Source: Klebsiella phage KMI11. Taken from it: a stretch of DNA of 64,000 bases. The position numbers were made by a program, and so were the translations under genes. The stretch is from sequence record MN101225.1. One strand, given 5' to 3'. The number at the start of each line of letters is the position of its first letter. The stretch's first letter is position 1. The notes below the pieces were generated by a model that was not told the DNA's origin, ran no database searches, and saw only the letters and a program-made list of their open reading frames with translations. Of this stretch, positions 1,062-46,732 are shown piece after piece.

Positions 1062-2590
1062 AGATTTACCGTTTTCATTACGTAGTTAAATTTTTCATCA
1101 GCATATCGTTGAATACGCTCTAATGCATGTTTTAAGCAATAATTCAAATGCGTGTATTTCTTTTTAGCATTGGCTGACTTCGGCTTTACACCCAGGTCGT
1201 CGCAAATATCCCAGACAGTAGCTAATGATTTATCTTTATGCTTACGAAGAACACGACCAATAGTTTGGAGTACGATAATCTTCGATTTAACTGGATGGGC
1301 TAAAATTACATGATGCAGGTTTTTAACAGAAATACCGGTAGAAAATACACCGTAACTTGCGACGATAATAATTCCCTTTCCGTTTTCTGCCATAGCCTTT
1401 AAAGCATTACGTGTTTCGGTATTAACTTCGCCTGACACATAATAGACATGCTCATGACCAGCAGCTTTAATCATCTCGAACAGCTCTTTACCATGAGCCA
1501 CATGTTTAAACATCACAAAGGCATTTTCGTCACGCGCTGCAAGTTTAGTAGCAAGATTAGCAATCCAACGATTTCTTTTCTTAACATTGGTGATGAATTT
1601 AATTTCTTCTTGATACGTTTTGCCTTTTAAAGCGTTTGCGGCTGCATCTGGATATCTTAAGAAGATTGTATTAATTTTAAGCTCAGTTACTTGTCCGTCT
1701 TCCATTAACTTAGAAGTTGATACTGGACGGAAGATTTCACCAAACATGCCAACATATTGCATGATATTAGCTTTGCCGTCTTTAAGAGAACCAGACAGTC
1801 CGTACTTAAACATGCAATTGGTGAGACCCGCAATGATTGTTGAAATTGACTTACCCGTTGCAAGATGGCATTCATCATTCATCATCATGCCGAATTGAGA
1901 AAACCATTCTTTAGGCTGCTTAACAGCGGTCTGCCAGGTAGATACATAAACTAATGCGTTGGAATCACGAGCAGTACCACCTCGAATACCCAACATAGCA
2001 TTGCGAGGAAATAAACGATAATCACAAAAATCATCAATCATCTGGTCAACTAACGCTGTAGTAGGAACGATGATAAGAACCTTGCCTTCGTAATTTTCTA
2101 CATAATAACGAGCAAGTAATGCCTGAATAAGAGACTTACCAGCAGATGTTGGAAGATTAAGAATTCTACGTCGATTAACTAGACCTTCATATACAGCATC
2201 TTTCTGATACCAGTGAGGTTCAATCTTAGTTAATCCTGAATAAATTTCTTTAGTTGATAACCAATTATCAAAATCCTCCCGCGAAAGAGTTTCTTGCTCG
2301 AATATAGCTGGATCGAAATAAACCTTATATCCGAATTGGTCAGCGAATTTTCTGATTTGGCCAACAAGACCAAACGGTAAGAGACGATTATAATCTAGCA
2401 GACGAATTCGTCCATCCCAATGTCCATAGCGATATTTCGGGTTGAATCTGTATCCATCGGCTTCGAAGCTAAAATAGTCTCTGAGTTCATAGAAAATCGA
2501 GTCATCACACTCAATATGAACATGACTAAAATCTTTAAATTTGACTTGGATGTCGTGCACTGTACTATCCTCAGTTATAAATACAATCAT
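1058..2590 (-). CDS. uvsW: UvsW SF2 DNA/RNA helicase
   Basis: 510 aa; strong full-length agreement with recalled T4 UvsW (FHELRD.FSFEADGYRFNP..RYG.WDGRIRLLDYNRLLPFGLVGQI, Walker A LNLPTSAGKS, MMMNDECHLATGKS, C-terminal FNYVMKTVNL). Confidence 0.93.
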   Translation of the reverse strand: MIVFITEDSTVHDIQVKFKDFSHVHIECDDSIFYELRDYFSFEADGYRFNPKYRYGHWDGRIRLLDYNRLLPFGLVGQIRKFADQFGYKVYFDPAIFEQETLSREDFDNWLSTKEIYSGLTKIEPHWYQKDAVYEGLVNRRRILNLPTSAGKSLIQALLARYYVENYEGKVLIIVPTTALVDQMIDDFCDYRLFPRNAMLGIRGGTARDSNALVYVSTWQTAVKQPKEWFSQFGMMMNDECHLATGKSISTIIAGLTNCMFKYGLSGSLKDGKANIMQYVGMFGEIFRPVSTSKLMEDGQVTELKINTIFLRYPDAAANALKGKTYQEEIKFITNVKKRNRWIANLATKLAARDENAFVMFKHVAHGKELFEMIKAAGHEHVYYVSGEVNTETRNALKAMAENGKGIIIVASYGVFSTGISVKNLHHVILAHPVKSKIIVLQTIGRVLRKHKDKSLATVWDICDDLGVKPKSANAKKKYTHLNYCLKHALERIQRYADEKFNYVMKTVNL

Positions 2591-2617
2591 ATTTATACAT
2601 CACACGAGGCACAACTA

Positions 2618-3412
2618 ATGCTAGATAAAGACTATATTAAAGAAATCCAGGCACTCGATAAAAAAGAAGCTAAAGACAAGCTCGACGAGTATGCCCAAAC
2701 TTTCGGTATTAAACTGAAAAAGACCCGTTCATTTGACAATATGGTTGCTGACTTAGAAAAAGAACTGGCTAAATTGGCTGATGAGCCTATGCCAGAAGAT
2801 AATGATGGGCTGTCAATTGCTGATTTAATCCAAGCAGATGATGAAATTGAGGGTAAAGCAGTATTTAAAGATGAAGCGTCTGATGAGGCAAAACTACTGT
2901 TTGACGCTCCAGTTAATGTTGGTATTAAAATTCATGATATTGACCCAGGTTTCTATAAAGAAACCCCTAAGGTAAATGACCCAGGGTTTGAAGTAAAAAC
3001 ACCTTCTATCAATGATAAAGGATTTTATGCTGAAGCTCCTATTGGAGACAGCGTTATTCATATAGATGATGAAGGACAAGTTACCAATATTCCGGTTAGT
3101 ATCACGGACCCCGAAGAATTTTTCAAAGCAATGGACAAAGTAGTTAAAATTGTTAAAACTGATGAAACCATTGAGCTTCCTAAAAACTTTAGTCCAAACA
3201 TGCAATTGCTAGGTAAGAACCCAGGATATATTACTCTTCCATGGTGGATTTACCAATGGATTAAAGATAACCCGGACTGGAAATCTCGGCCAACGTCGTT
3301 TGAACACCCATCAGCACACCAGACATTGTTTAGTTTAATCTATTACATCAAAAGAAACGGGTCTGTTATGATTCGTGAAACACGTAATTCTTCATTTGTA
3401 ACTTTAAAATAA
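2618..3412 (+). CDS. hoc-adjacent acidic protein, possibly Inh (prohead protease inhibitor) homolog
   Basis: ATG at 2618 after GAGG RBS (the track's 2420 start overlaps uvsW); acidic protein immediately upstream of hoc where T4 has inh; sequence identity to Inh not verifiable by eye. Confidence 0.4.
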   Translation: MLDKDYIKEIQALDKKEAKDKLDEYAQTFGIKLKKTRSFDNMVADLEKELAKLADEPMPEDNDGLSIADLIQADDEIEGKAVFKDEASDEAKLLFDAPVNVGIKIHDIDPGFYKETPKVNDPGFEVKTPSINDKGFYAEAPIGDSVIHIDDEGQVTNIPVSITDPEEFFKAMDKVVKIVKTDETIELPKNFSPNMQLLGKNPGYITLPWWIYQWIKDNPDWKSRPTSFEHPSAHQTLFSLIYYIKRNGSVMIRETRNSSFVTLK

Positions 3413-3421
3413 GGAACACCT

Positions 3422-4828
3422 ATGGCTTATAGCGTATCTATTGCTCCTTTGGCTGCTTCGGCAGTCATTGGAGCAACAACCAATTTTACTGCAACAACTT
3501 CTGGAGCCGCAGCTGAAGGCACAGAAACGTTTGTATGGACAGTAAATGGCGTAAAACAATCTTCTGTTACCGCAGCTATGAATTATGTTGCTGCAGGACC
3601 TGCCGGCAGTAAGACTGTTAAAGTAGTTGCTACTGTTACCCCAGCAGAGGGCGAGGCAGAAACTGCTGAGGCAGAAACCACTCTTACAGTTCAGAACAAA
3701 ACTATGCCTGCGATTACTTTAACTTTGAGCCCGACTTCTGTTTCTAAAGAAATTGGACAATCACAAGTAGTCACGGCTGATGTTACTGGCGCCCCGTCAG
3801 GAGCAAGCATTGCTTATGTTTGGAAACGCGGCTCTTCTGTTATTTCTGGCCAAACGGGTAAAACAATTACCATAACTGAACCTGCGGAAGCTAATTACAC
3901 ATTGAATTGTGAAGTCACAGTTTCTGCAGCAAATTACAACCCGGCTACTGCAACTAAAGGTATTGCTGTTGCTTTTACTAAAAAGACCATGAGCGGCGTT
4001 TCAGTTGCTCTGACACCTAGTTCAATTACCGCTGAAAAAGGAGCAGAAGCATCTTTTAAAGCCGATGTTACTGGAGCGCCGGCGGGAGCATCTGTAGCTT
4101 ACTCATGGACCAAAGACGGTTCTCCTGTAGAAGGCTCAACAAGCACTCTAGAAATTGATACATCCACTATCGGGTCTCAAGTAATTGAGGTTTCGGCTGT
4201 TGTTTCTGCTCCAGATTATAAACCTGTTACAGTTACTAAAACTGGTAATGTAACTATTACCAAAAAGACCATGAGCGGTGTTTCTGTTACTTTGACTCCT
4301 GAGTCTATTACGACCGAACAAGGGTCTGAAGCATCTTTTAAAGCCAACGTTATCGGTGCTCCAGAAGGTGCAACTGGGGTTTATTCTTGGACCAAAGACG
4401 GTTCTCCTGTAGAAGGCTCAACAAGCACGTTAGTGATTGACACGTCTGATATAGGGTCTCAAGTGATTGAGGTTTCTGTTGAGGTTTCCGCAGAAGATTA
4501 CACCCCGATTACAGTCACTAAAACTGGCGATGTAACCATTACTAAAAGGGTAGCCCCGGAGCCAGACGGAGAACTTCCGTATATTCATCCTCTACCGTTC
4601 CGTGGAACAGCCTATATCTGGTGTGGATGGTGGGTAATGGATGAAATCCAACGAATGACTGTTGAGGGCAAAGATTGGAAACTCGACGACCCTGATAGCG
4701 ATTATTACCTGCATCGGTATACTCTGGCTAAAATGCTAGATGATTATCCAGAAGTCGATGTACAAGAATCTAGAAATGGATACATTGTTCATCGTACTGC
4801 GCTGGAAGCAGGTATTATCTATCCTTAA
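3422..4828 (+). CDS. hoc: Hoc highly immunogenic outer capsid protein (Ig-like repeats)
   Basis: 468 aa; repeated Ig-like modules (VTGAP.GAS.AY.W.K.GS..V.G.T); C-terminal capsid-binding region close to T4 Hoc (PEP.GELPY.HPLP.R..AYIWCGWWVMDEIQ.MT.EGKDWK.DDPDS.YYLHRYTL.KM..DYPEVDVQESRNGYI.H.TALE.GIIY). Confidence 0.9.
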   Translation: MAYSVSIAPLAASAVIGATTNFTATTSGAAAEGTETFVWTVNGVKQSSVTAAMNYVAAGPAGSKTVKVVATVTPAEGEAETAEAETTLTVQNKTMPAITLTLSPTSVSKEIGQSQVVTADVTGAPSGASIAYVWKRGSSVISGQTGKTITITEPAEANYTLNCEVTVSAANYNPATATKGIAVAFTKKTMSGVSVALTPSSITAEKGAEASFKADVTGAPAGASVAYSWTKDGSPVEGSTSTLEIDTSTIGSQVIEVSAVVSAPDYKPVTVTKTGNVTITKKTMSGVSVTLTPESITTEQGSEASFKANVIGAPEGATGVYSWTKDGSPVEGSTSTLVIDTSDIGSQVIEVSVEVSAEDYTPITVTKTGDVTITKRVAPEPDGELPYIHPLPFRGTAYIWCGWWVMDEIQRMTVEGKDWKLDDPDSDYYLHRYTLAKMLDDYPEVDVQESRNGYIVHRTALEAGIIYP

Positions 4829-4833
4829 TATTC

Positions 4834-4856
4834 GGGAGCCTTCGGGCTCCCTTTTT
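4834..4856 (+). terminator. rho-independent terminator after hoc (GGGAGCC-UUCG-GGCUCCC-UUUUU)
   Basis: perfect 7-bp GC-rich stem, UUCG tetraloop, T5 run. Confidence 0.8.
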
Positions 4857-4906
4857 GCTATTCACGGATTGGTTTATTATGTCCTCGTCACATAGATGAG
4901 GTTATT

Positions 4907-5134
4907 ATGAAAGCATTACAAGCTCACTTGATGCATGAAAGCGGAAAAGATTTTCAAGAAATTGCAAGAGCGTTAGATATCACTCCAGCCGAAGCCGCTA
5001 AGCTGTGGGTCTCTGTTGAGAAAGCACATGAGCGGTTTAAACAAAAAGAGAAAGTTGTATATCGAAAACGCTTAACAAACGTTGATATAAAATCTCGTCA
5101 TAAGAAACTTGTTAAACACATGAGGACTTTATAA
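4907..5134 (+). CDS. small basic protein with HTH-like segment
   Basis: 75 aa; DFQEIARALDITPAEAAKLW resembles a helix-turn-helix; start overlaps next ORF (ATGA). Confidence 0.45.
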   Translation: MKALQAHLMHESGKDFQEIARALDITPAEAAKLWVSVEKAHERFKQKEKVVYRKRLTNVDIKSRHKKLVKHMRTL

Positions 5135-5460
5135 TGTCTAAAGTAGATAAAAAGGTAGAAGAGAAACTTGAGATGTTCCTAGAGCGCAAGTTTGCTCCTG
5201 CGGCGAGCAATATTAATGATTGGCGTTCTGCATCAAGATTTGTTGATAATATGATGGCTCGAATATTCGATAGCACTTATTATAAAAATGGCGCACGCAA
5301 AATCTCAGATTTGATTAAAGAACGGTATGGAAAAATTGATTGGATGCTAATGGATGTAAATGTTCCGTTAGTATTAGAAGTTGGACCTAAAAACCAGTTT
5401 GAAATCATGCGAAATAAACACGACCAATTAATGTATCGCTTTGTTCCAAGCGGATATTAA
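5134..5460 (+). CDS. hypothetical protein
   Basis: 108-aa ORF translationally coupled to the upstream ORF. Confidence 0.45.
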   Translation: MSKVDKKVEEKLEMFLERKFAPAASNINDWRSASRFVDNMMARIFDSTYYKNGARKISDLIKERYGKIDWMLMDVNVPLVLEVGPKNQFEIMRNKHDQLMYRFVPSGY

Positions 5461-42022: not shown

Positions 42023-42109
42023 GGGGAGTTAGACCGTAGGGGTAGCGGGACAGACTGTAAATCTGTTGCTCAAAAGGCTCGAGTGGTTCGACTCCATTAC
42101 TCCCCACCA
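42023..42109 (+). tRNA. tRNA-Tyr(GUA), class II (long variable arm)
   Basis: acceptor GGGGAGU/ACUCCCC, anticodon stem ACAGA/UCUGU loop cuGUAaa, T-arm GGTTCGACT, A73, encoded CCA. Confidence 0.85.
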
Positions 42110-42115
42110 AATTTA

Positions 42116-42192
42116 GGGATACTAGCTCAGTTGGTTAGAGCACCGGACTTTTAATCCGGGTGTCCGAAGTTCGAGTCTTCGGTGTCCCACCA
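42116..42192 (+). tRNA. tRNA-Lys(UUU)
   Basis: acceptor GGGAUAC/GUGUCCC, anticodon stem CCGGA/UCCGG loop cuUUUaa, T-arm CGAAG-TTCGAGT-CTTCG, CCA. Confidence 0.85.
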
Positions 42193-42197
42193 AATTC

Positions 42198-42282
42198 GGG
42201 TCGTTGGCTGAGAGGGTAAGCGACGGACTGTTAATCCGTGTCAGAAATGACTAGGCAGGTTCGATACCTGCACGGCCCGCCA
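42198..42282 (+). tRNA. tRNA-Asn(GUU) with unusual 15-nt variable arm and 3-bp D stem
   Basis: anticodon arm ACGGA-cuGUUaa-UCCGU is identical to the E. coli tRNA-Asn anticodon arm; acceptor GGGUCGU/ACGGCCC, G73, CCA; extra GUCA-GAAA-UGAC hairpin in the variable region. Confidence 0.7.
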
Positions 42283-42536
42283 AATGAAGAAGTCAGAAGA
42301 CGTTCTGATAAAATCGTCGGCACAGAAATCCCTGGCATGGCGTTTGTATTAAGGAGTATGATTTCATCCTGCTTAATGCTTGTTCATGTTATAATTTCTT
42401 ACGGCGTTGAAAGTTCGCTTTCAGGGATACATCTTAGAGCAGAGTGTTAAACAAGATTCATCTGGTACCAAGGTGATGAGAGCCCTGTTCCCCTTTGCTT
42501 CGGCATCGTGCCAGAGTATCTCTGAAAGCGAATTAT

Positions 42537-42613
42537 GGACCTATAGTTTAGTTGGTTAAAATACTCCCCTGTCACGGGAGAGAGCACGGGTTCGATCCCC
42601 GTTAGGTCCGCCA
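42537..42613 (+). tRNA. tRNA-Asp(GUC)
   Basis: acceptor GGACCUA/UAGGUCC, anticodon stem CUCCC/GGGAG loop cuGUCac, G73, CCA. Confidence 0.85.
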
Positions 42614-42774
42614 AATAAGAACGTGGCAGTTCTTGAAGATGAGTTTGAGTCCTATAAGATAATGCCGAGGACGAAGCTGTTTGTTCCCACGGAATAAGCT
42701 CTATATTCGTAAGATTATATCTTTAGCGTGTTCTACATCAAGCTACTTGTTAGTACTTCAAGAACCCGGATAAA

Positions 42775-42851
42775 TGCGGAGTAACTTCAGTTGGTAGAAT
42801 GTTGGGCTCATATCCCGACACGCGCAGGTTCGAGTCCTGCCTCCGCCTCCA
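42775..42851 (+). tRNA. tRNA(CAU), initiator-like (fMet-type features)
   Basis: anticodon loop cuCAUau on a stem with three consecutive G:C pairs (GGG/CCC) next to the loop, as in initiator tRNA; 1:72 is a U.C mismatch; T-arm GCAGG-TTCGAGT-CCTGC; CCA. Confidence 0.65.
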
Positions 42852-42856
42852 ACAAT

Positions 42857-42931
42857 TGGACTATAGACAAGCGGTTAAGTCACCGGCCTTTGACTCCGGT
42901 ATCTCTGGTTCGAATCCAGATAGTCCAGCCA
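42857..42931 (+). tRNA. tRNA-Gln(UUG)
   Basis: U1-A72, CAAGCGGUAAG D-loop and CACCGG as in E. coli tRNA-Gln; anticodon loop cuUUGac; G73, CCA. Confidence 0.85.
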
Positions 42932-43026
42932 AATTAATATTCATTCAACGCGTCTACAGGGGTTGAACTGATCATTCTTCTCTTAATTTCGTATGAAGTC
43001 CTCATGATGGATGGAGTGAATATTGA

Positions 43027-43103
43027 TGTGGCCGTAGTTCAGTTGGTAGAACTCAGCATTGTGATTGCTGTCGTCGACGGTTCAAATCCGTCCGGTCACC
43101 CCA
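43027..43103 (+). tRNA. tRNA-His(GUG)
   Basis: anticodon stem CAGCA/UGCUG loop uuGUGau; acceptor GUGGCCG/CGGUCAC, C73, CCA; no encoded G-1. Confidence 0.8.
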
Positions 43104-43199
43104 ACAATGAAGGAATGGTGGAAAAATACACGGCCCGCAAAACGCTGTGGCTGTCGCTAAGCGAATTGTGTCTATATGACACTTCCTTCACCAAATACT

Positions 43200-43284
43200 G
43201 GAGAGTAGCGCTAGTGGTAGCAAACCGGACTTGAAATCCGGGCCATCGGAAACGGTGAGGGTTCAACTCCTTTACTCTCCGCCA
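43200..43284 (+). tRNA. tRNA-Ser(UGA), class II
   Basis: acceptor GGAGAGU/ACUCUCC, anticodon stem CCGGA/UCCGG loop cuUGAaa, long variable arm, G73, CCA. Confidence 0.85.
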
Positions 43285-43350
43285 AATTTATGAAAGTTAA
43301 ACGCTGCCCATAGCAGTGGTACATCAACAATTAGATGATTAGCTTTCCAT

Positions 43351-43426
43351 GGGAGTATAGCTCATTTGGTAGAGCTCTCGACCGATAATCGAGCGGTGAC
43401 TGGTTCGAGTCCAGTTACTCCCACCA
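43351..43426 (+). tRNA. tRNA-Ile(GAU)
   Basis: acceptor GGGAGUA/UACUCCC, anticodon stem CUCGA/UCGAG loop ccGAUaa (C33), A73, CCA. Confidence 0.8.
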
Positions 43427-43432
43427 AATAAC

Positions 43433-43507
43433 AGGTTCTTAGTATAACGGCTATTATGCTGGGCTCCAAACCCAGTGATGAGGGTTCGATTCCTTCAGGG
43501 CCTGCCA
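43433..43507 (+). tRNA. tRNA-Trp(CCA)
   Basis: acceptor AGGUUCU/AGGGCCU, anticodon stem CUGGG/CCCAG loop cuCCAaa, G73, CCA. Confidence 0.8.
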
Positions 43508-43512
43508 AATTT

Positions 43513-43587
43513 GCATCCATCGTATAACGGCTATTATAGGTGACTTCCACTCACTTGATAAGGGTTCGATTCCCTTTGGATGCTCCA
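43513..43587 (+). tRNA. tRNA-Gly(UCC)
   Basis: acceptor GCAUCCA/UGGAUGC, anticodon loop cuUCCac, T-arm AAGGG-TTCGATT-CCCTT, U73, CCA. Confidence 0.85.
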
Positions 43588-43592
43588 AATTA

Positions 43593-43669
43593 CTCCGTAT
43601 AGCTCAGTCTGGTAGAGCGTTCCATTTGGGATGGAAAGGTCGAATGTTCGAGTCATTCTATGGAGACCA
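43593..43669 (+). tRNA. tRNA-Pro(UGG)
   Basis: anticodon stem UUCCA/UGGAA loop uuUGGga; T-arm GAATG-TTCGAGT-CATTC; A73, CCA. Confidence 0.85.
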
Positions 43670-43675
43670 AATTAA

Positions 43676-43819
43676 CGGTATGACACAATACAAGATGGCG
43701 TAAGCTGAGTAGCGGGATTGCAGTCTCGTTCAGATATGCTATCGAGTATGGGTGATATATTAAACACATGGATTCTGCAAAGTCCATGTGACTCGGTTCG
43801 AGGCCGGGCATACCGTCCA
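43676..43819 (+). ncRNA. tRNA-like stable RNA candidate (about 144 nt; perfect acceptor stem, T-arm and CCA but oversized core)
   Basis: 5' CGGUAUG pairs 7/7 with 3' CAUACCG, followed by U73 and CCA; T-arm CUCGG-TTCGAGG-CCGGG; 7-bp hairpin ACATGGA/TCCATGT immediately 5' of the T stem; starts 6 nt after tRNA-Pro, matching the cluster spacing. Confidence 0.5.
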
Positions 43820-43844
43820 ATCACTTGCCATTGAGAAATATATT

Positions 43845-43997
43845 ATGAAATATTACGGCTTCAAAACATCCCATTTCGGGAAAGCATATCGTACAGAAAA
43901 CATTGATAGACGTCGAGCATATTACGAATCACTGCATAAAGCAGGACGTTCTCGTGCACGACAAGAAGGCCAAAAACAAGCGAAGGAAATAGAATGA
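43845..43997 (+). CDS. small basic protein
   Basis: ATG at 43845 (MKYYGFK...) chosen because the track ORF's earlier portion overlaps the tRNA-like element; basic C-terminus. Confidence 0.35.
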   Translation: MKYYGFKTSHFGKAYRTENIDRRRAYYESLHKAGRSRARQEGQKQAKEIE

Positions 43998-44359
43998 ATA
44001 TTTTTATTGGTGTTGCAAATAACGTAAATGCTATTACGGTGAAATTACAATGGAATCGTCCAACTAATTTTGCTTTAGGATTATGTAAATCTGAACGTGA
44101 TTTAATGCTTCATGCTGATTTTGCATACACTTTTGATGAACGCAAAGGTATGTGGGTCTGGATTAAATGCAGATACGAAGCATTAATCAAATATGAGTAC
44201 TTCAGTGAGCGTGATATTCAAGAAGTTATTGCTTATCATTCTGGCTGTAAAGTAAGTAAACTGCGTCAAGTTATTCCGTTTACTAATGCTTCAAATGTAG
44301 AAGAGCTAATTACTGATTTTAAACGAATTTATCAGGCGAAATATGATGAAAGATTCTAA
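43994..44359 (+). CDS. hypothetical protein
   Basis: 121-aa ORF, ATGA coupling. Confidence 0.45.
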   Translation: MNIFIGVANNVNAITVKLQWNRPTNFALGLCKSERDLMLHADFAYTFDERKGMWVWIKCRYEALIKYEYFSERDIQEVIAYHSGCKVSKLRQVIPFTNASNVEELITDFKRIYQAKYDERF

Positions 44360-44576
44360 AGGTCGAGACGTACAAGTTGGTGATATCGTTTTCTACGGAG
44401 AACGTACATATAATAAAGGTGGTCGTGGTTCTATGCGCTGCGGTCGTATTACAGATATTGCTTCAGGATTGGCTAAAGTAGATAACGACTACGTTGCAAT
44501 GCGAAGCAAATCATTCGTTAAGGTTTCTCCTATGTTCGCAACAATGTGGGAAAACGGAACGATTTTCGAGATTTAA
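44343..44576 (+). CDS. hypothetical protein
   Basis: 77-aa ORF. Confidence 0.4.
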   Translation: MMKDSKGRDVQVGDIVFYGERTYNKGGRGSMRCGRITDIASGLAKVDNDYVAMRSKSFVKVSPMFATMWENGTIFEI

Positions 44577-44630
44577 TGCTACAAGAATAACCTGTTATTA
44601 TTACTACATCAAAACAAACAAGGAAAAAGA

Positions 44631-44855
44631 ATGAAACGTATCGCACTGATTGTTGACCAAGAAGCTATGTTCGCTGCTACCGGTAAATTTCATCCGGTGA
44701 GTAAATTTGTTGCTCGCAGCGAGAAAATCGTTGGTCTGGTAGAAACTGTCGCAGGTGATGTAATTGTTTCTATTAAAACGTCTGAAATTTCTCCAGTAGT
44801 TAAAGTAGCAGTTGAAAATGACTTCTGGGAAGTAGCTGATTTTATGTGTGAGTAA
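44631..44855 (+). CDS. hypothetical protein
   Basis: 74-aa ORF with AAGGAAAAAGA RBS; followed by a terminator. Confidence 0.45.
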   Translation: MKRIALIVDQEAMFAATGKFHPVSKFVARSEKIVGLVETVAGDVIVSIKTSEISPVVKVAVENDFWEVADFMCE

Positions 44856-44888
44856 TTCTGCCTAGCAGGTGGATAAGCCCGACAAGGC

Positions 44889-44908
44889 GCCCTCTTCGGA
44901 GGGCTTTT
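44889..44908 (+). terminator. rho-independent terminator GCCCUC-UUCG-GAGGGC-UUUU
   Basis: 6-bp GC stem, UUCG loop, T4 run. Confidence 0.75.
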
Positions 44909-44933
44909 ATAAAAGTCATAAGATTTCTATAAA

Positions 44934-45010
44934 GGCCCTGTAGCTCAATTGGTAGAGCGTTCCCCTCATAAGGGATTGGTTGCATGTTCGAGTCTTTGCC
45001 AGGGTCACCA
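44934..45010 (+). tRNA. tRNA(CAU), elongator Met or Ile2(k2C)-type
   Basis: acceptor GGCCCUG/CAGGGUC fully paired (G1-C72), anticodon stem UUCCC/GGGAU loop cuCAUaa, TTCGAGTC T-loop (8-nt loop or imperfect stem), A73, CCA. Confidence 0.65.
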
Positions 45011-45029
45011 AATTAATGAGGAAAATATT

Positions 45030-45230
45030 ATGATGCGATTAGTTAAAGTAGTTGTAGAAGAATCTGAATACATGGGCGATAGCCGAATGATTGAAGAATT
45101 CGTTACTGTTGAGGCAGATTCTGAATCTGAAATCGCTGATAAAGTTTATCGTCATTTTGATAATATGTCTGATTCGTATGGCACAATGTATAACATTTAT
45201 CGTTTAGATGTAATAGTACATATCAACTGA
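45030..45230 (+). CDS. hypothetical acidic protein
   Basis: ATG at 45030 after GAGG; the track's upstream extension overlaps the tRNA. Confidence 0.45.
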   Translation: MMRLVKVVVEESEYMGDSRMIEEFVTVEADSESEIADKVYRHFDNMSDSYGTMYNIYRLDVIVHIN

Positions 45231-45240
45231 GGAAATTGAA

Positions 45241-45798
45241 ATGCATATTAAATTTGGACAAGTTATTCCTAAAGGCTTAGCAATGGCAATTACCACTTGG
45301 GAAAACGATGCTGATCGGTATTCTACCCAAATGGTTTATGGCTTAGAAAAAGAAGAGATTAATCAAGTAATTCACGTTCTTGAATGGTTCTCTTCTAATG
45401 GTCGGCGTGGTGAATACCTTGGAAATAATGATTACAACCATGAAGCAATTCTTGAAAAGCTTCATACTGAACAGAAGTATGTAACTCCTGAATTTTCCAA
45501 GAAATTCTTTGGCGTTGATGTTCCTGCATATGATTGTTCAGACGAAGAGTTTGATGCTTATTTAGATAACCACTATTCTTGTTCAAATGAAGTTATGTAT
45601 GCTATTCAGGCTTGGTTGGGTAATCCAATTGAATATGATTATGATTTCATGCGAGTATTTGAGAAAGTTGAAATCTTTGATATTAAAGAAGAAATTCGTA
45701 TTCCTGATGCTCCGGTTGCATTCCATATTGGAATTACGTATAAGCAGAAAGAAAGCCCATTAAAAGTTGATTGGTTGAAATACGTGAAGGAAAAGTAA
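45241..45798 (+). CDS. hypothetical protein
   Basis: 185-aa ORF. Confidence 0.5.
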   Translation: MHIKFGQVIPKGLAMAITTWENDADRYSTQMVYGLEKEEINQVIHVLEWFSSNGRRGEYLGNNDYNHEAILEKLHTEQKYVTPEFSKKFFGVDVPAYDCSDEEFDAYLDNHYSCSNEVMYAIQAWLGNPIEYDYDFMRVFEKVEIFDIKEEIRIPDAPVAFHIGITYKQKESPLKVDWLKYVKEK

Positions 45799-46248
45799 AT
45801 GGATATTGGTTCAGGTAGTTCATATCCATCATGTGCTTTGAGCAACTTTGCTCCTCATAAATTTATCTATGATGGCGTAGAATGTGCATCAATGGAGGGA
45901 TTCTTGCAGTCCCTCAAATTTTCTTCGCCTGAAATGCAAGCACATGTATGTACATTAGTTGGTAAATCGGCTAAGTTCAAAGGTAAAAAGAAACGGTGGT
46001 GGCCAACTCAAACACTTTATTGGAAAGGCGTGCCAATCCATCGTGCTTCAGAAGCGTATCAGAATTTACTGACAGGAGCATACGATGCACTTAGTAAAAA
46101 TGAAGGATTCAGAAAAGCTTTGGCTGCTACCCGGAATGCTACGCTCACTCACAGTATGGGCAAAAACAAAATTTCTGAAACGATTTTGACTGAACGCGAA
46201 TTCTGTAATCAACTTTATCGTTTGAGAAATGCTATAAATAATCAGTAA
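45799..46248 (+). CDS. NADAR/YbiA-like (DUF1768) domain protein, putative ADP-ribose N-glycosidase
   Basis: 149 aa; N-terminal block LSNFAPHKFIYDGVECASMEGFLQSLKF matches the NADAR core (LSNF..PF....F.S.EH.FQA.KF); translationally coupled to the upstream ORF. Confidence 0.5.
   Translation: MDIGSGSSYPSCALSNFAPHKFIYDGVECASMEGFLQSLKFSSPEMQAHVCTLVGKSAKFKGKKKRWWPTQTLYWKGVPIHRASEAYQNLLTGAYDALSKNEGFRKALAATRNATLTHSMGKNKISETILTEREFCNQLYRLRNAINNQ
46233..46240 (+). promoter_or_regulatory. late promoter TATAAATA upstream of the second tRNA subcluster
   Basis: exact TATAAATA 20 nt before the tRNA-like element at 46260. Confidence 0.55.
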
Positions 46249-46259
46249 TATAATTATCT

Positions 46260-46387
46260 TGTTCAGTGTTGAAATCGGTAGACATGGTGACGGACACCTT
46301 TTGAGCTCGCATATTGCATCATATGCTGGCGACGGTGGTAAATCGCTGACGGAATCAGTCGTGCAGGTTCGAGTCCTGCCTGAACAA
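46260..46387 (+). ncRNA. tRNA-like stable RNA candidate (about 128 nt) fused 3 nt upstream of tRNA-Arg
   Basis: 5' UGUUCAG pairs 7/7 with 3' CUGAACA; canonical T-arm GCAGG-TTCGAGT-CCTGC; D-loop-like AAUCGGUAGAC; about 55 nt of extra core including a GCATAT-TGCATC-ATATGC hairpin; no clean anticodon arm found. Confidence 0.5.
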
Positions 46388-46390
46388 TCT

Positions 46391-46467
46391 CGGGGCATAG
46401 CTCAGTTGGATAGAGCAGCGGACTTCTAATCCGCAGGTCGAAGGTTCGAATCCTTCTGCCTCGACCA
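46391..46467 (+). tRNA. tRNA-Arg(UCU)
   Basis: acceptor CGGGGCA/UGCCUCG, anticodon stem GCGGA/UCCGC loop cuUCUaa, T-arm GAAGG-TTCGAAT-CCTTC, A73, CCA. Confidence 0.85.
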
Positions 46468-46471
46468 TTTC

Positions 46472-46556
46472 GCATCGATGGTGGAACTGGTATACACAGG
46501 AGACTTAAAATCTCCCGCCGCAAGGATTGAGGGTTCGAATCCCTCTCGGTGCACCA
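46472..46556 (+). tRNA. tRNA-Leu(UAA), class II
   Basis: acceptor GCAUCGA/UCGGUGC, anticodon stem GGAGA/UCUCC loop cuUAAaa, long variable arm, A73, CCA. Confidence 0.85.
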
Positions 46557-46566
46557 AATTAAGACC

Positions 46567-46652
46567 CCGGGAATAGTTGCTTAAACTTAGTGAGGAATTC
46601 AACGGCAGATACGTCTGTGCAACTACATAAGGTTCGAATCCTTATTTCCGTC
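46567..46652 (+). ncRNA. tRNA-like element (86 nt; T-arm and 6/7 acceptor pairs, noncanonical core) abutting tRNA-Thr
   Basis: T-arm TAAGG-TTCGAAT-CCTTA; 5' CCGGGAA versus 3' UUUCCGU (C1.U72 mismatch); internal long-range AGTTGC...GCAACT helix and GCAGA-TACG-TCTGT hairpin; no CCA. Confidence 0.4.
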
Positions 46653-46656
46653 TTAA

Positions 46657-46732
46657 GCCGATTTAGCTCAGCTGGTAGAGCGCTTCACTTGTAATGAAGA
46701 TGTCGCGGGTTCGACTCCTGCAATCGGCACCA
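46657..46732 (+). tRNA. tRNA-Thr(UGU)
   Basis: acceptor GCCGAUU/AAUCGGC, anticodon stem CUUCA/UGAAG loop cuUGUaa, T-arm GCGGG-TTCGACT-CCTGC, A73, CCA. Confidence 0.85.

Follow-up and report, generated by a model that had tools for sequence, protein, structure and literature searches.

An initiator-type tRNA(CAU) gene with phage-specific deviations in the tRNA cluster of a T4-like Klebsiella phage

The tRNA gene with anticodon CAU at 42775-42851, on the plus strand of the 64,000-nucleotide stretch of Klebsiella phage KMI11 DNA analyzed here (MN101225.1; hereafter the window), is to all appearances a divergent, phage-specific variant of the phage-encoded initiator tRNA, a class that is already known. 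The function that we favor for it, and that we hold to be reasonably probable, is that of an active initiator-class tRNA, which would add to or replace the tRNAfMet of the host. The initiator tRNA is a bottleneck of translation and a target of bacterial toxins such as VapC and AtaT.

The gene is part of a cluster of 16 phage tRNA genes. According to ARAGORN, two of them carry the anticodon CAU, the one at 42775-42851 and a second one at 44934-45010 (CAU2 in what follows). Between 41900 and 46800 the window is 97.9% identical, across the full length, to Klebsiella phage KPV15, classified in Straboviridae, Tevenvirinae, Jiaodavirus; the window phage is of Jiaodavirus type and T4-like. A promoter and terminator scan of the tRNA cluster gave counts that were not above those of shuffled sequence, and defined no transcription unit. 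ARAGORN calls a tRNA-Met(CAU) at exactly 42775-42851, and the general tRNA model of Rfam (RF00005) matches the gene with 42.3 bits, for a gathering score of 29, this being the third lowest general-model score in the cluster. Divided into its parts, the RNA reads UGCGGAG-UA-A(C)UUC-AGUUGGUA-GAAU-G-UUGGG-CUCAUAU-CCCGA-CACGC-GCAGG-UUCGAGU-CCUGC-CUCCGC-C-U-CCA, and the features referred to below are the following:

42023-46732, plus strand: cluster of 16 phage tRNA genes (ARAGORN; the Rfam tRNA model matches 16 of 16)
42775-42851, plus strand: initiator-type tRNA(CAU) gene, 77 nt with the encoded CCA and one extra, bulged D-stem nucleotide (ARAGORN, Rfam, initiator model R1)
42775-42775, plus strand: U1, opposite C72 (42847), no standard pair possible (encoded CCA, covariation)
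42776-42781, plus strand: acceptor 5' strand G2-G7 (GCGGAG), paired with 42841-42846 (CUCCGC) and including G2:C71, C3:G70 and G4:C69
42784-42800, plus strand: D arm with A10:U25, bulged C (42785), U11:A24, U12:A23, C13:G22 and the loop AGUUGGUA
42802-42818, plus strand: anticodon arm UUGGG-CUCAUAU-CCCGA, with G:C pairs 42804-42806/42814-42816, CAU at 42809-42811 and U38 at 42813
42824-42840, plus strand: T arm GCAGG-UUCGAGU-CCUGC (pairs 50:64 and 51:63 covary)
42847-42851, plus strand: C72, discriminator U73 (42848) and encoded CCA (42849-42851)
44934-45010, plus strand: CAU2, of the tRNA-Ile2 (lysidine) type (match to T4 tRNA-Ile)

A preliminary description of this DNA had reported an unpaired U.C at position 1:72, a claim that would fall if a realignment paired the two positions. 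Such a realignment does arise with Rfam, whose alignment takes G42776 as position 1, deletes position 66 and makes C42847 the discriminator, because ten bases, and not nine, precede the D-stem core. Nevertheless, the register in which position 1 is paired with C72 is ruled out by three lines of evidence. The first one is the encoded 3' end: CCA directly follows the discriminator in 16 of the 16 tRNAs of the cluster, and therefore CCA occupies 42849-42851, U73 is 42848, C72 is 42847 and position 1 is U42775. The second one is covariation. When 12 relatives are aligned, the four stems are 100% paired in the ARAGORN register and contain six compensatory pairs, and shifting the register by one to three columns lowers the pairing to 52% or less. 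In particular, the compensatory changes found among 12 family members at 6:67 (G:C, G:U, A:U) and 7:66 (U:A, G:C) indicate that the seventh acceptor pair exists, thus fixing the register of seven positions. Finally, the initiator model R1, described below, aligns the phage tRNA end to end, from 42775 to 42848. With the register so fixed, 1:72 is U.C in all 12 relatives and is never paired, as had been claimed. Within the cluster, an unpaired 1:72 occurs in this tRNA only (1/16).

The second hallmark that had been pointed out, namely three consecutive G:C pairs closing the anticodon stem, is also borne out: G29:C41, G30:C40 and G31:C39 are invariant in the 12 relatives. In the cluster, GGG/CCC at this place is shared only with tRNA-Trp, and the combination with an unpaired 1:72 is exclusive to the tRNA at 42775-42851. 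The anticodon at 42809-42811 is CAU, as in initiators. Furthermore, the near identity of the anticodon stem-loop with that of E. coli tRNAfMet was verified on the metZ, metW and metV genes (GGGCUCAUAUCCC in the phage, GGGCUCAUAACCC in metZ). A single loop base differs, U38 in the place of A38, and no other departure from the host anticodon stem-loop is invariant across the phage family.

The D arm and the discriminator tell a different story, in that neither carries the initiator state. The placement with a bulged base in the D stem does not displace U8, A14, G18-G19 or A21. Moreover, in the Kanagawavirus phages 10:25 is C:G instead of A:U, and the bulge is A instead of C, a compensatory event that, being only one, lends modest support to the bulge. 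Another folding of the arm, with a connector of three nucleotides and a C10.U25 apposition, was set aside on account of this same covariation, a single evolutionary event. Position 11:24 is not A:U under either placement. Therefore the A11:U24 pair, whose presence the preliminary description had proposed to check, is missing, and U11:A24 is found instead, adjoining the bulged base. A73 is also absent: the discriminator is U73, which all the aligned relatives but phage Moon retain (11/12). Counted by positions, the D arm shares 14 of 20 with CAU2 and 6 to 10 of 20 with initiators; such an elongator-like D arm leaves room for convergence or for a chimeric origin of the phage tRNA.

Which class the molecule as a whole resembles was addressed by identity and by covariance models. 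The identity of the phage tRNA reaches 63.6% with E. coli fMet, 70.5% with MT837313 (a canonical initiator from a phage scaffold of faecal origin), 53.2% with E. coli Ile2 (ileY) and 51.9% with E. coli elongator Met (metU), the lowest value of the three classes. When it was compared by BLAST with 5,426 E. coli genomes, the only matches fell in the metZWV locus, and they were weak (E = 7). The model R1 was built from 40 canonical initiators, that is 38 from viral contigs, E. coli metZ and MT837313, and the class test consists in subtracting the general Rfam score from the R1 score, a comparison made between these two models. Absolute R1 scores do not discriminate (the tRNA-Arg of the window attains 69.4), and the difference from the general model alone is informative. 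For the phage tRNA, R1 gives 61.9 bits against 42.3 with Rfam, a gain of 19.6 bits, part of which restates the three G:C pairs because the training sequences of R1 had been picked by their initiator anticodon arm. The same difference amounts to +37.8 for E. coli fMet, lies between +13 and +31 for the initiator-type tRNAs of other phages, and is +14.7 and +17.0 for two relatives of the phage tRNA. It is negative for E. coli Met (-15.5), E. coli Ile2 (-12.9) and CAU2 (-10.0), and indeed for each of the other 15 tRNAs of the window, where it goes from -4.1 (Arg, the best one) to below -30. The tRNA at 42775-42851 is thus the only one in the window that scores higher with R1 than with the general tRNA model.

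The likeness has a precise location. In the acceptor stem, the phage tRNA shares 10 to 14 of 15 positions with initiators and 5 to 7 with Met and Ile2; in the anticodon arm, 14 to 15 of 17 with initiators and 6 to 8 with Met and Ile2. In addition, G2:C71, C3:G70 and G4:C69 are invariant in every relative that has letters at these positions. Since only the acceptor stem and the anticodon arm are initiator-like, the molecule can be described as an elongator-type body carrying two initiator modules. The initial proposal of an initiator-like tRNA is therefore to be retained in part: both hallmark modules, the pairs 2:71 to 4:69 and the R1 gain speak for it, and against it stand the absence of A11:U24 and A73 and the elongator-like D arm.

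Relatives of the gene are numerous. Besides 16 IMG/VR contigs, the family comprises 226 GenBank phage records, in the genera Jiaodavirus, Marfavirus, Moonvirus, Winklervirus and Kanagawavirus, with Klebsiella, Enterobacter, Citrobacter, Serratia and a few Salmonella as hosts; no Escherichia-named phage is present among the family matches listed. In the records examined, the gene is labeled tRNA-Met, once tRNA-OTHER (pKp20), or is left unannotated, and a Jiaodavirus genome paper gives "tRNA-Met-CAT" twice without comment (PMC9117343). Some members carry changes that look damaging: a deletion of one nucleotide in the acceptor strand in Roth04, the loss of CCA to a homing-endonuclease insertion in pKp20, and the loss of TCC in Moon. 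Judging by these variants, the gene may be dispensable.

Beyond this family, a search of phages with E. coli metZ retrieved initiator-type tRNAs in at least 358 records, among them mycobacteriophages (cluster C1), Caulobacter, Aeromonas and Lak phages and S-PM2, so that phage initiator tRNAs are a known kind. The family of 42775-42851 is absent from the phage matches of this metZ search, being too diverged. How rare each of its peculiarities is can be seen from 90 initiator-type tRNAs sampled from viral contigs, whose ends were parsed by anchoring on the pairing. Positions 37-38 are AA in 79 of them, AU in 9, UA in 1 and UG in 1, which makes U38 the commonest loop variant; position 73 is A in 83, U in 4 and C in 3; 1:72 is U.C in 1 of 90; and 11:24 is A:U in 68 and something else in 22. 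The window tRNA unites the four minority states, U38, U73, U.C and the lack of A11:U24. Of these, U73 and U38 are seen again in myophages that infect Aeromonas and enterobacteria. A scan of a genome collection with GGGCTCATATCCCG gave, among the matches listed, 6 tRNAs in 120 loci, the rest being chance 14-mers, and yields no usable baseline for U38 in cellular initiators. Taken together with the bulged D stem, these four states would mark a phage-specific sublineage.

How could such a molecule work? Elongator tRNAs need only receive a mismatched 1:72 and the three G:C pairs in order to initiate in E. coli, and formylation is aided by G2:C71, C3:G70 and A11:U24 (R11:Y24) (PMC7949028). The unpaired 1:72 is the major determinant for the formyltransferase, A73 and 2:71 to 4:69 being minor ones, and recognition by MetRS relies mainly on the anticodon (PMC9976931). 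Furthermore, initiation in vivo is still supported by derivatives of E. coli tRNAfMet that carry U73, and by those that carry U1-A72 (PMC11822699). In the mechanism that we envisage, the tRNA would be transcribed with its cluster and excised by the RNase P and the 3' processing of the host, with CCA already encoded, and would then be charged with methionine by the host MetRS through its CAU anticodon. [quoted passage not shown] During infection, the phage tRNA would in this way supplement or substitute the host tRNAfMet. The departures described above would probably lower the recognition by some host partners without abolishing the initiator function. The idea that such a tRNA gives the phage some independence from host initiation capacity is, in turn, overstated: MetRS, formyltransferase and initiation factors of the host would still be needed, and at most the phage gene would supply or replace the tRNA itself.

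The other CAU tRNA of the cluster bears on what else this gene could be. As had been noted, CAU2 has a paired G1:C72. The preliminary description had also suggested looking in it for determinants of TilS, which in E. coli are C4:G69 and C5:G68 (as cited in PMC1635315); both pairs are present, together with A73, and CAU2 also carries U12:A23, C29:G41, A37 and A38. With E. coli ileY its identity is 72.7%, and with fMet 53.8%. CAU2 also matches the Ile(CAU) tRNAs of T4, RB69 and 44RR, that of T4 being annotated as tRNA-Ile in one T4 record. In every T4-like phage that bears tRNAs, a CAU tRNA with IleRS signatures, presumed to contain lysidine, has been described (Nolan 2006, PMC1524935). CAU2 is accordingly a T4-type tRNA-Ile2, and the earlier sorting of the two CAU tRNAs was correct. 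The Met/Ile set of the phage would then consist of Ile(GAU), Ile2(CAU) and one Met-type tRNA, of the initiator type.

This set invites a second reading, according to which the gene encodes an elongator or dual-purpose Met tRNA whose initiator-like parts are inherited remnants, with U11:A24 and U73 weakening formylation and internal AUG codons being served. With CAU2 being an Ile2, the phage has no other tRNA that decodes Met; the elongator-like D arm and the missing A11:U24 point in the same direction, as does the weak U1:A72 pair of relatives in Aeromonas phages and in GAP32, a state that, by what is reported from the RajBhandary laboratory, permits both initiation and elongation. Nevertheless, in the present family 1:72 is a true U.C mismatch in 12 of 12 members, and a mismatch at this position excludes initiators from EF-Tu, for which a Watson-Crick 1:72 is needed. 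Elongation, moreover, does not need three invariant G:C pairs, and it is precisely to the elongator Met of the host that identity is lowest among the three classes (52%). We consequently regard this reading as rather unlikely, and the initiator function as the better account of the gene.

A further proposal refines the purpose of the initiator explanation and does not replace it: the tRNA could be a nuclease-resistant spare initiator, whose U38 and altered acceptor end (U.C, U73) would escape VapC or AtaT triggered by infection. The VapC toxins of Shigella and Salmonella cleave tRNAfMet between A38 and C39 (PMC4105405), and U38, invariant across the family, sits at this very site. VapC recognition depends on both sequence and structure, and AtaT acts on Met-tRNAfMet, at the charged end (PMC7180214). 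U38, besides being the commonest loop variant among the 90 viral tRNAs, recurs in T4-like Aeromonas phages and in E. coli phage muut, and it has been hypothesized that phage tRNAs bear mutations in the anticodon loop that evade anticodon nucleases (PMC10264068). VapC homologues are found on at least 2248 Klebsiella plasmid records (among the best 5000), mostly at about 41-45% identity to Shigella VapC. The VapC of one Klebsiella virulence plasmid (WP_023345587), about 43% identical to the Shigella protein, weakens the argument: its best NCBIfam match is to the tRNA(fMet)-specific VapC models, but with 122 bits it stays below their curated cut-offs (140). Altogether, we see in the resistant spare initiator a tentative idea with a low chance of being right. 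The same low standing is given to its wider form, in which myophages of enterobacteria and Aeromonas (the Jiaodavirus, Moonvirus and Kanagawavirus phages, the 44RR group and Justusliebigvirus) would share an initiator lineage with U38 and U73, selected for escape from toxins that disable tRNAfMet. If this were true, the tRNA would be a counter-defense device rather than a simple boost of supply. It has been stated that phages with enteric hosts as a rule avoid carrying a tRNA-fMet gene (PMC10264068); this family is an exception, and the statement would in that case need correcting.

Could the gene simply be decaying or non-functional, retained in the phage through linkage to its cluster? Its low general-model score, its irregular bulged D stem and the members that have suffered a deletion, lost CCA or taken up a homing-endonuclease insertion might be understood in this sense. 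That each of the four stems shows compensatory changes across genera, with 100% pairing, is difficult to reconcile with decay, as are the invariance or near invariance of the anticodon loop, GGG/CCC, U1, C72 and U73, and the conservation of the gene in 226 records; we thus find this explanation quite improbable. As for the gene being itself a tRNA-Ile2, with C34 modified to lysidine and reading AUA, the CAU anticodon and the known occurrence of tRNA-Ile2 in T4-like phages (PMC1524935) are outweighed by G4:C69 and G5:C68 in the place of the TilS determinants C4:G69 and C5:G68, by U73 instead of A73, by the T4-type Ile2 already encoded at 44934-45010 and by an identity to ileY of 53%, and we give it hardly any credit.

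If the gene does encode an initiator, a large group of phages of Klebsiella, Enterobacter and Citrobacter, used therapeutically, brings along its own start tRNA, which databases and genome papers have so far given as a second "tRNA-Met". The natural combination of U.C, U73, U38 and an elongator-type D arm constitutes a test of which initiator features are needed in vivo, and an invariant U38 beside the VapC cut site offers a concrete handle on the escape of phages from tRNA-cleaving defenses. If supply were its only role, the gene would be nothing out of the ordinary among phage tRNAs. The class of phage initiator tRNAs is known; what is unusual is the natural combination of deviations, and the coincidence of U38 with the VapC site.

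Several known systems help to place this tRNA. The tRNA-Ile of T4, with anticodon CAU and of the lysidine type, is the model for CAU2 and is unrelated to the tRNA at 42775-42851. The canonical initiator-type tRNAs of other phages are likewise phage-borne tRNA(CAU) molecules with initiator features, but they keep the loop CUCAUAA, A73 and A11:U24, which the window family does not.

Closer in its details is the tRNA-Met of Aeromonas phages 44RR2.8t, 25, 31 and phiAS4 (ST44RRtRNA003), a group reached through the scan of viral contigs; Nolan 2006 (PMC1524935) gives this tRNA simply as Met CAU. It shares with the window tRNA U1, U73, the CCA, the loop CUCAUAU and the three G:C pairs, and differs in having a weak U1:A72 pair and a canonical A11:U24 D stem without a bulge, the overall identity being about 60%. 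The two genes have, in addition, a comparable setting. In 44RR2.8t, the Met tRNA comes after tRNA-Asp and lies upstream of Ile2(CAU)-vs.6-30.3-tRNA-Arg(UCU). In the window, the order is Asp and the gene at 42775-42851, then CAU2-ORF185-gp30.3-Arg(UCU), with a gp30.3 that is 71% identical to that of 44RR2.8t. From the shared order and gp30.3, the two Met tRNAs occupy corresponding slots. Partial combinations of the same states exist elsewhere: E. coli phage muut (Justusliebigvirus) combines C1.C72 with U73, A11:U24 and the loop UUCAUAU, the three G:C pairs being absent. In the jumbo phage GAP32, the sequence UGCGGAG...CUCCGCA-U-CCA gives U1:A72 together with U73.

With E. coli tRNAfMet (metZ/W/V, metY), the phage tRNA has in common the CAU anticodon, an unpaired 1:72, G2:C71, C3:G70, G4:C69 and the three G:C pairs. 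The anticodon arms are identical at 15 of 17 positions, and the acceptor stems are GCGGAG/CUCCGC in the phage and GCGGGG/CCCCGC in E. coli. The bacterial molecule, however, has C.A, A73, A38 and A11:U24 where that of the phage has U.C, U73, U38 and U11:A24 with the bulge, and the variable loops are unlike. The tRNAfMet with U73 (tRNAj) has this discriminator in common with the phage tRNA, but on an initiator body. The engineered initiators, made by giving elongators a mismatched 1:72 and three G:C pairs, present a similar elongator-like body with two initiator modules; they are laboratory constructs that do initiate in E. coli, whereas the phage tRNA is a natural molecule, known from its sequence.

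Every unique variant in the family of the initiator-type tRNA(CAU) of the phage (window 42775-42851) for which the 5′ flank was read has a purine (A or G) at position -1, immediately before the tRNA; in the outgroup tRNAs this position is mixed. Spanning the U.C mismatch of this tRNA, the purine at -1 could form a pair with U73 (42774 with 42848 in the window). This candidate -1:73 pair, which resembles the G-1:C73 of tRNA-His, might influence the position at which RNase P cuts.

Natural variants of the family present disruptions and alterations of the same gene. In Klebsiella phage pKp20 (stretch L003, 1148-1880), a homing-endonuclease gene lies directly 3′ of the U73-C of the initiator-type tRNA, where it takes the place of the encoded CCA and parts this tRNA from tRNA-Gln; the record annotates the tRNA as “tRNA-OTHER”. 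The same insertion exists in Raoultella phage M12a, and the window has none. [quoted passage not shown] The changes in Roth04 and Moon look damaging, and they may be either sequencing errors or the sign of a dispensable gene.

Within the cluster (window 42023-46732), the CCA end is encoded in all 16 tRNA genes. In 12 of them AAT follows directly (CCAaat); this recurrent AAT has the look of a motif that these genes share for 3′ processing or as a spacer. Three G:C pairs also close the anticodon stem of tRNA-Trp(CCA) (window 43433-43507; CUGGG/CCCAG), which, despite this, has a paired A1:U72. The second CAU tRNA, of Ile2 type (window 44934-45010), bears a U27.U43 mismatch, and the 3′ strand of its T stem is longer by one nucleotide (CUUUGC opposite GCAUG), placed as an insertion in the Rfam alignment. 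Two features were located in its surroundings:

Window 44889-44904: terminator-like element, a G+C-rich hairpin followed by a T run (GCCCTCTTCGGAGGGC-TTTTAT), located 30 nt before the Ile2-type tRNA
Window 45799-46248: ORF of 149 aa, gp30.3 homologue (Pfam PF08010, 188.9 bits)

The latter, 71% identical to 30.3 of Aeromonas phage 44RR2.8t, is located between the Ile2-type tRNA and tRNA-Arg, an arrangement common to both phages; the adjoining 185-aa ORF (window 45241-45798) had no match in the Pfam search. Just 3′ of the Ile2 tRNA of 44RR2.8t (L278, 1872-1947) there is a marginal Rfam tRNA-like match, right at the gathering score (29.5 bits) and absent from the record annotation.

Among the matches listed in a genome-collection scan, bacterial assemblies also contain initiator-like tRNAs, with U1:A72, A11:U24 and the loop CUCAUAU, one of them within a phage-like cluster of 8 tRNAs:

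L132, a 5.4-kb contig, 1814-5299: initiator-like tRNA match
L071, Pseudomonas mucoides, 1817-1892: initiator-like tRNA match

Regarding other phages, U73 is present in the four initiator-type tRNAs of 44RR2.8t (L278), E. coli phage muut (L279), GAP32 (L155) and Aeromonas phage ZPAH1 (L156), accompanied by U38 in 44RR and muut and by U37 in ZPAH1. These unrelated myophages have unusual initiator-tRNA states in common, which may reflect a phage-specific lineage or repeated selection.
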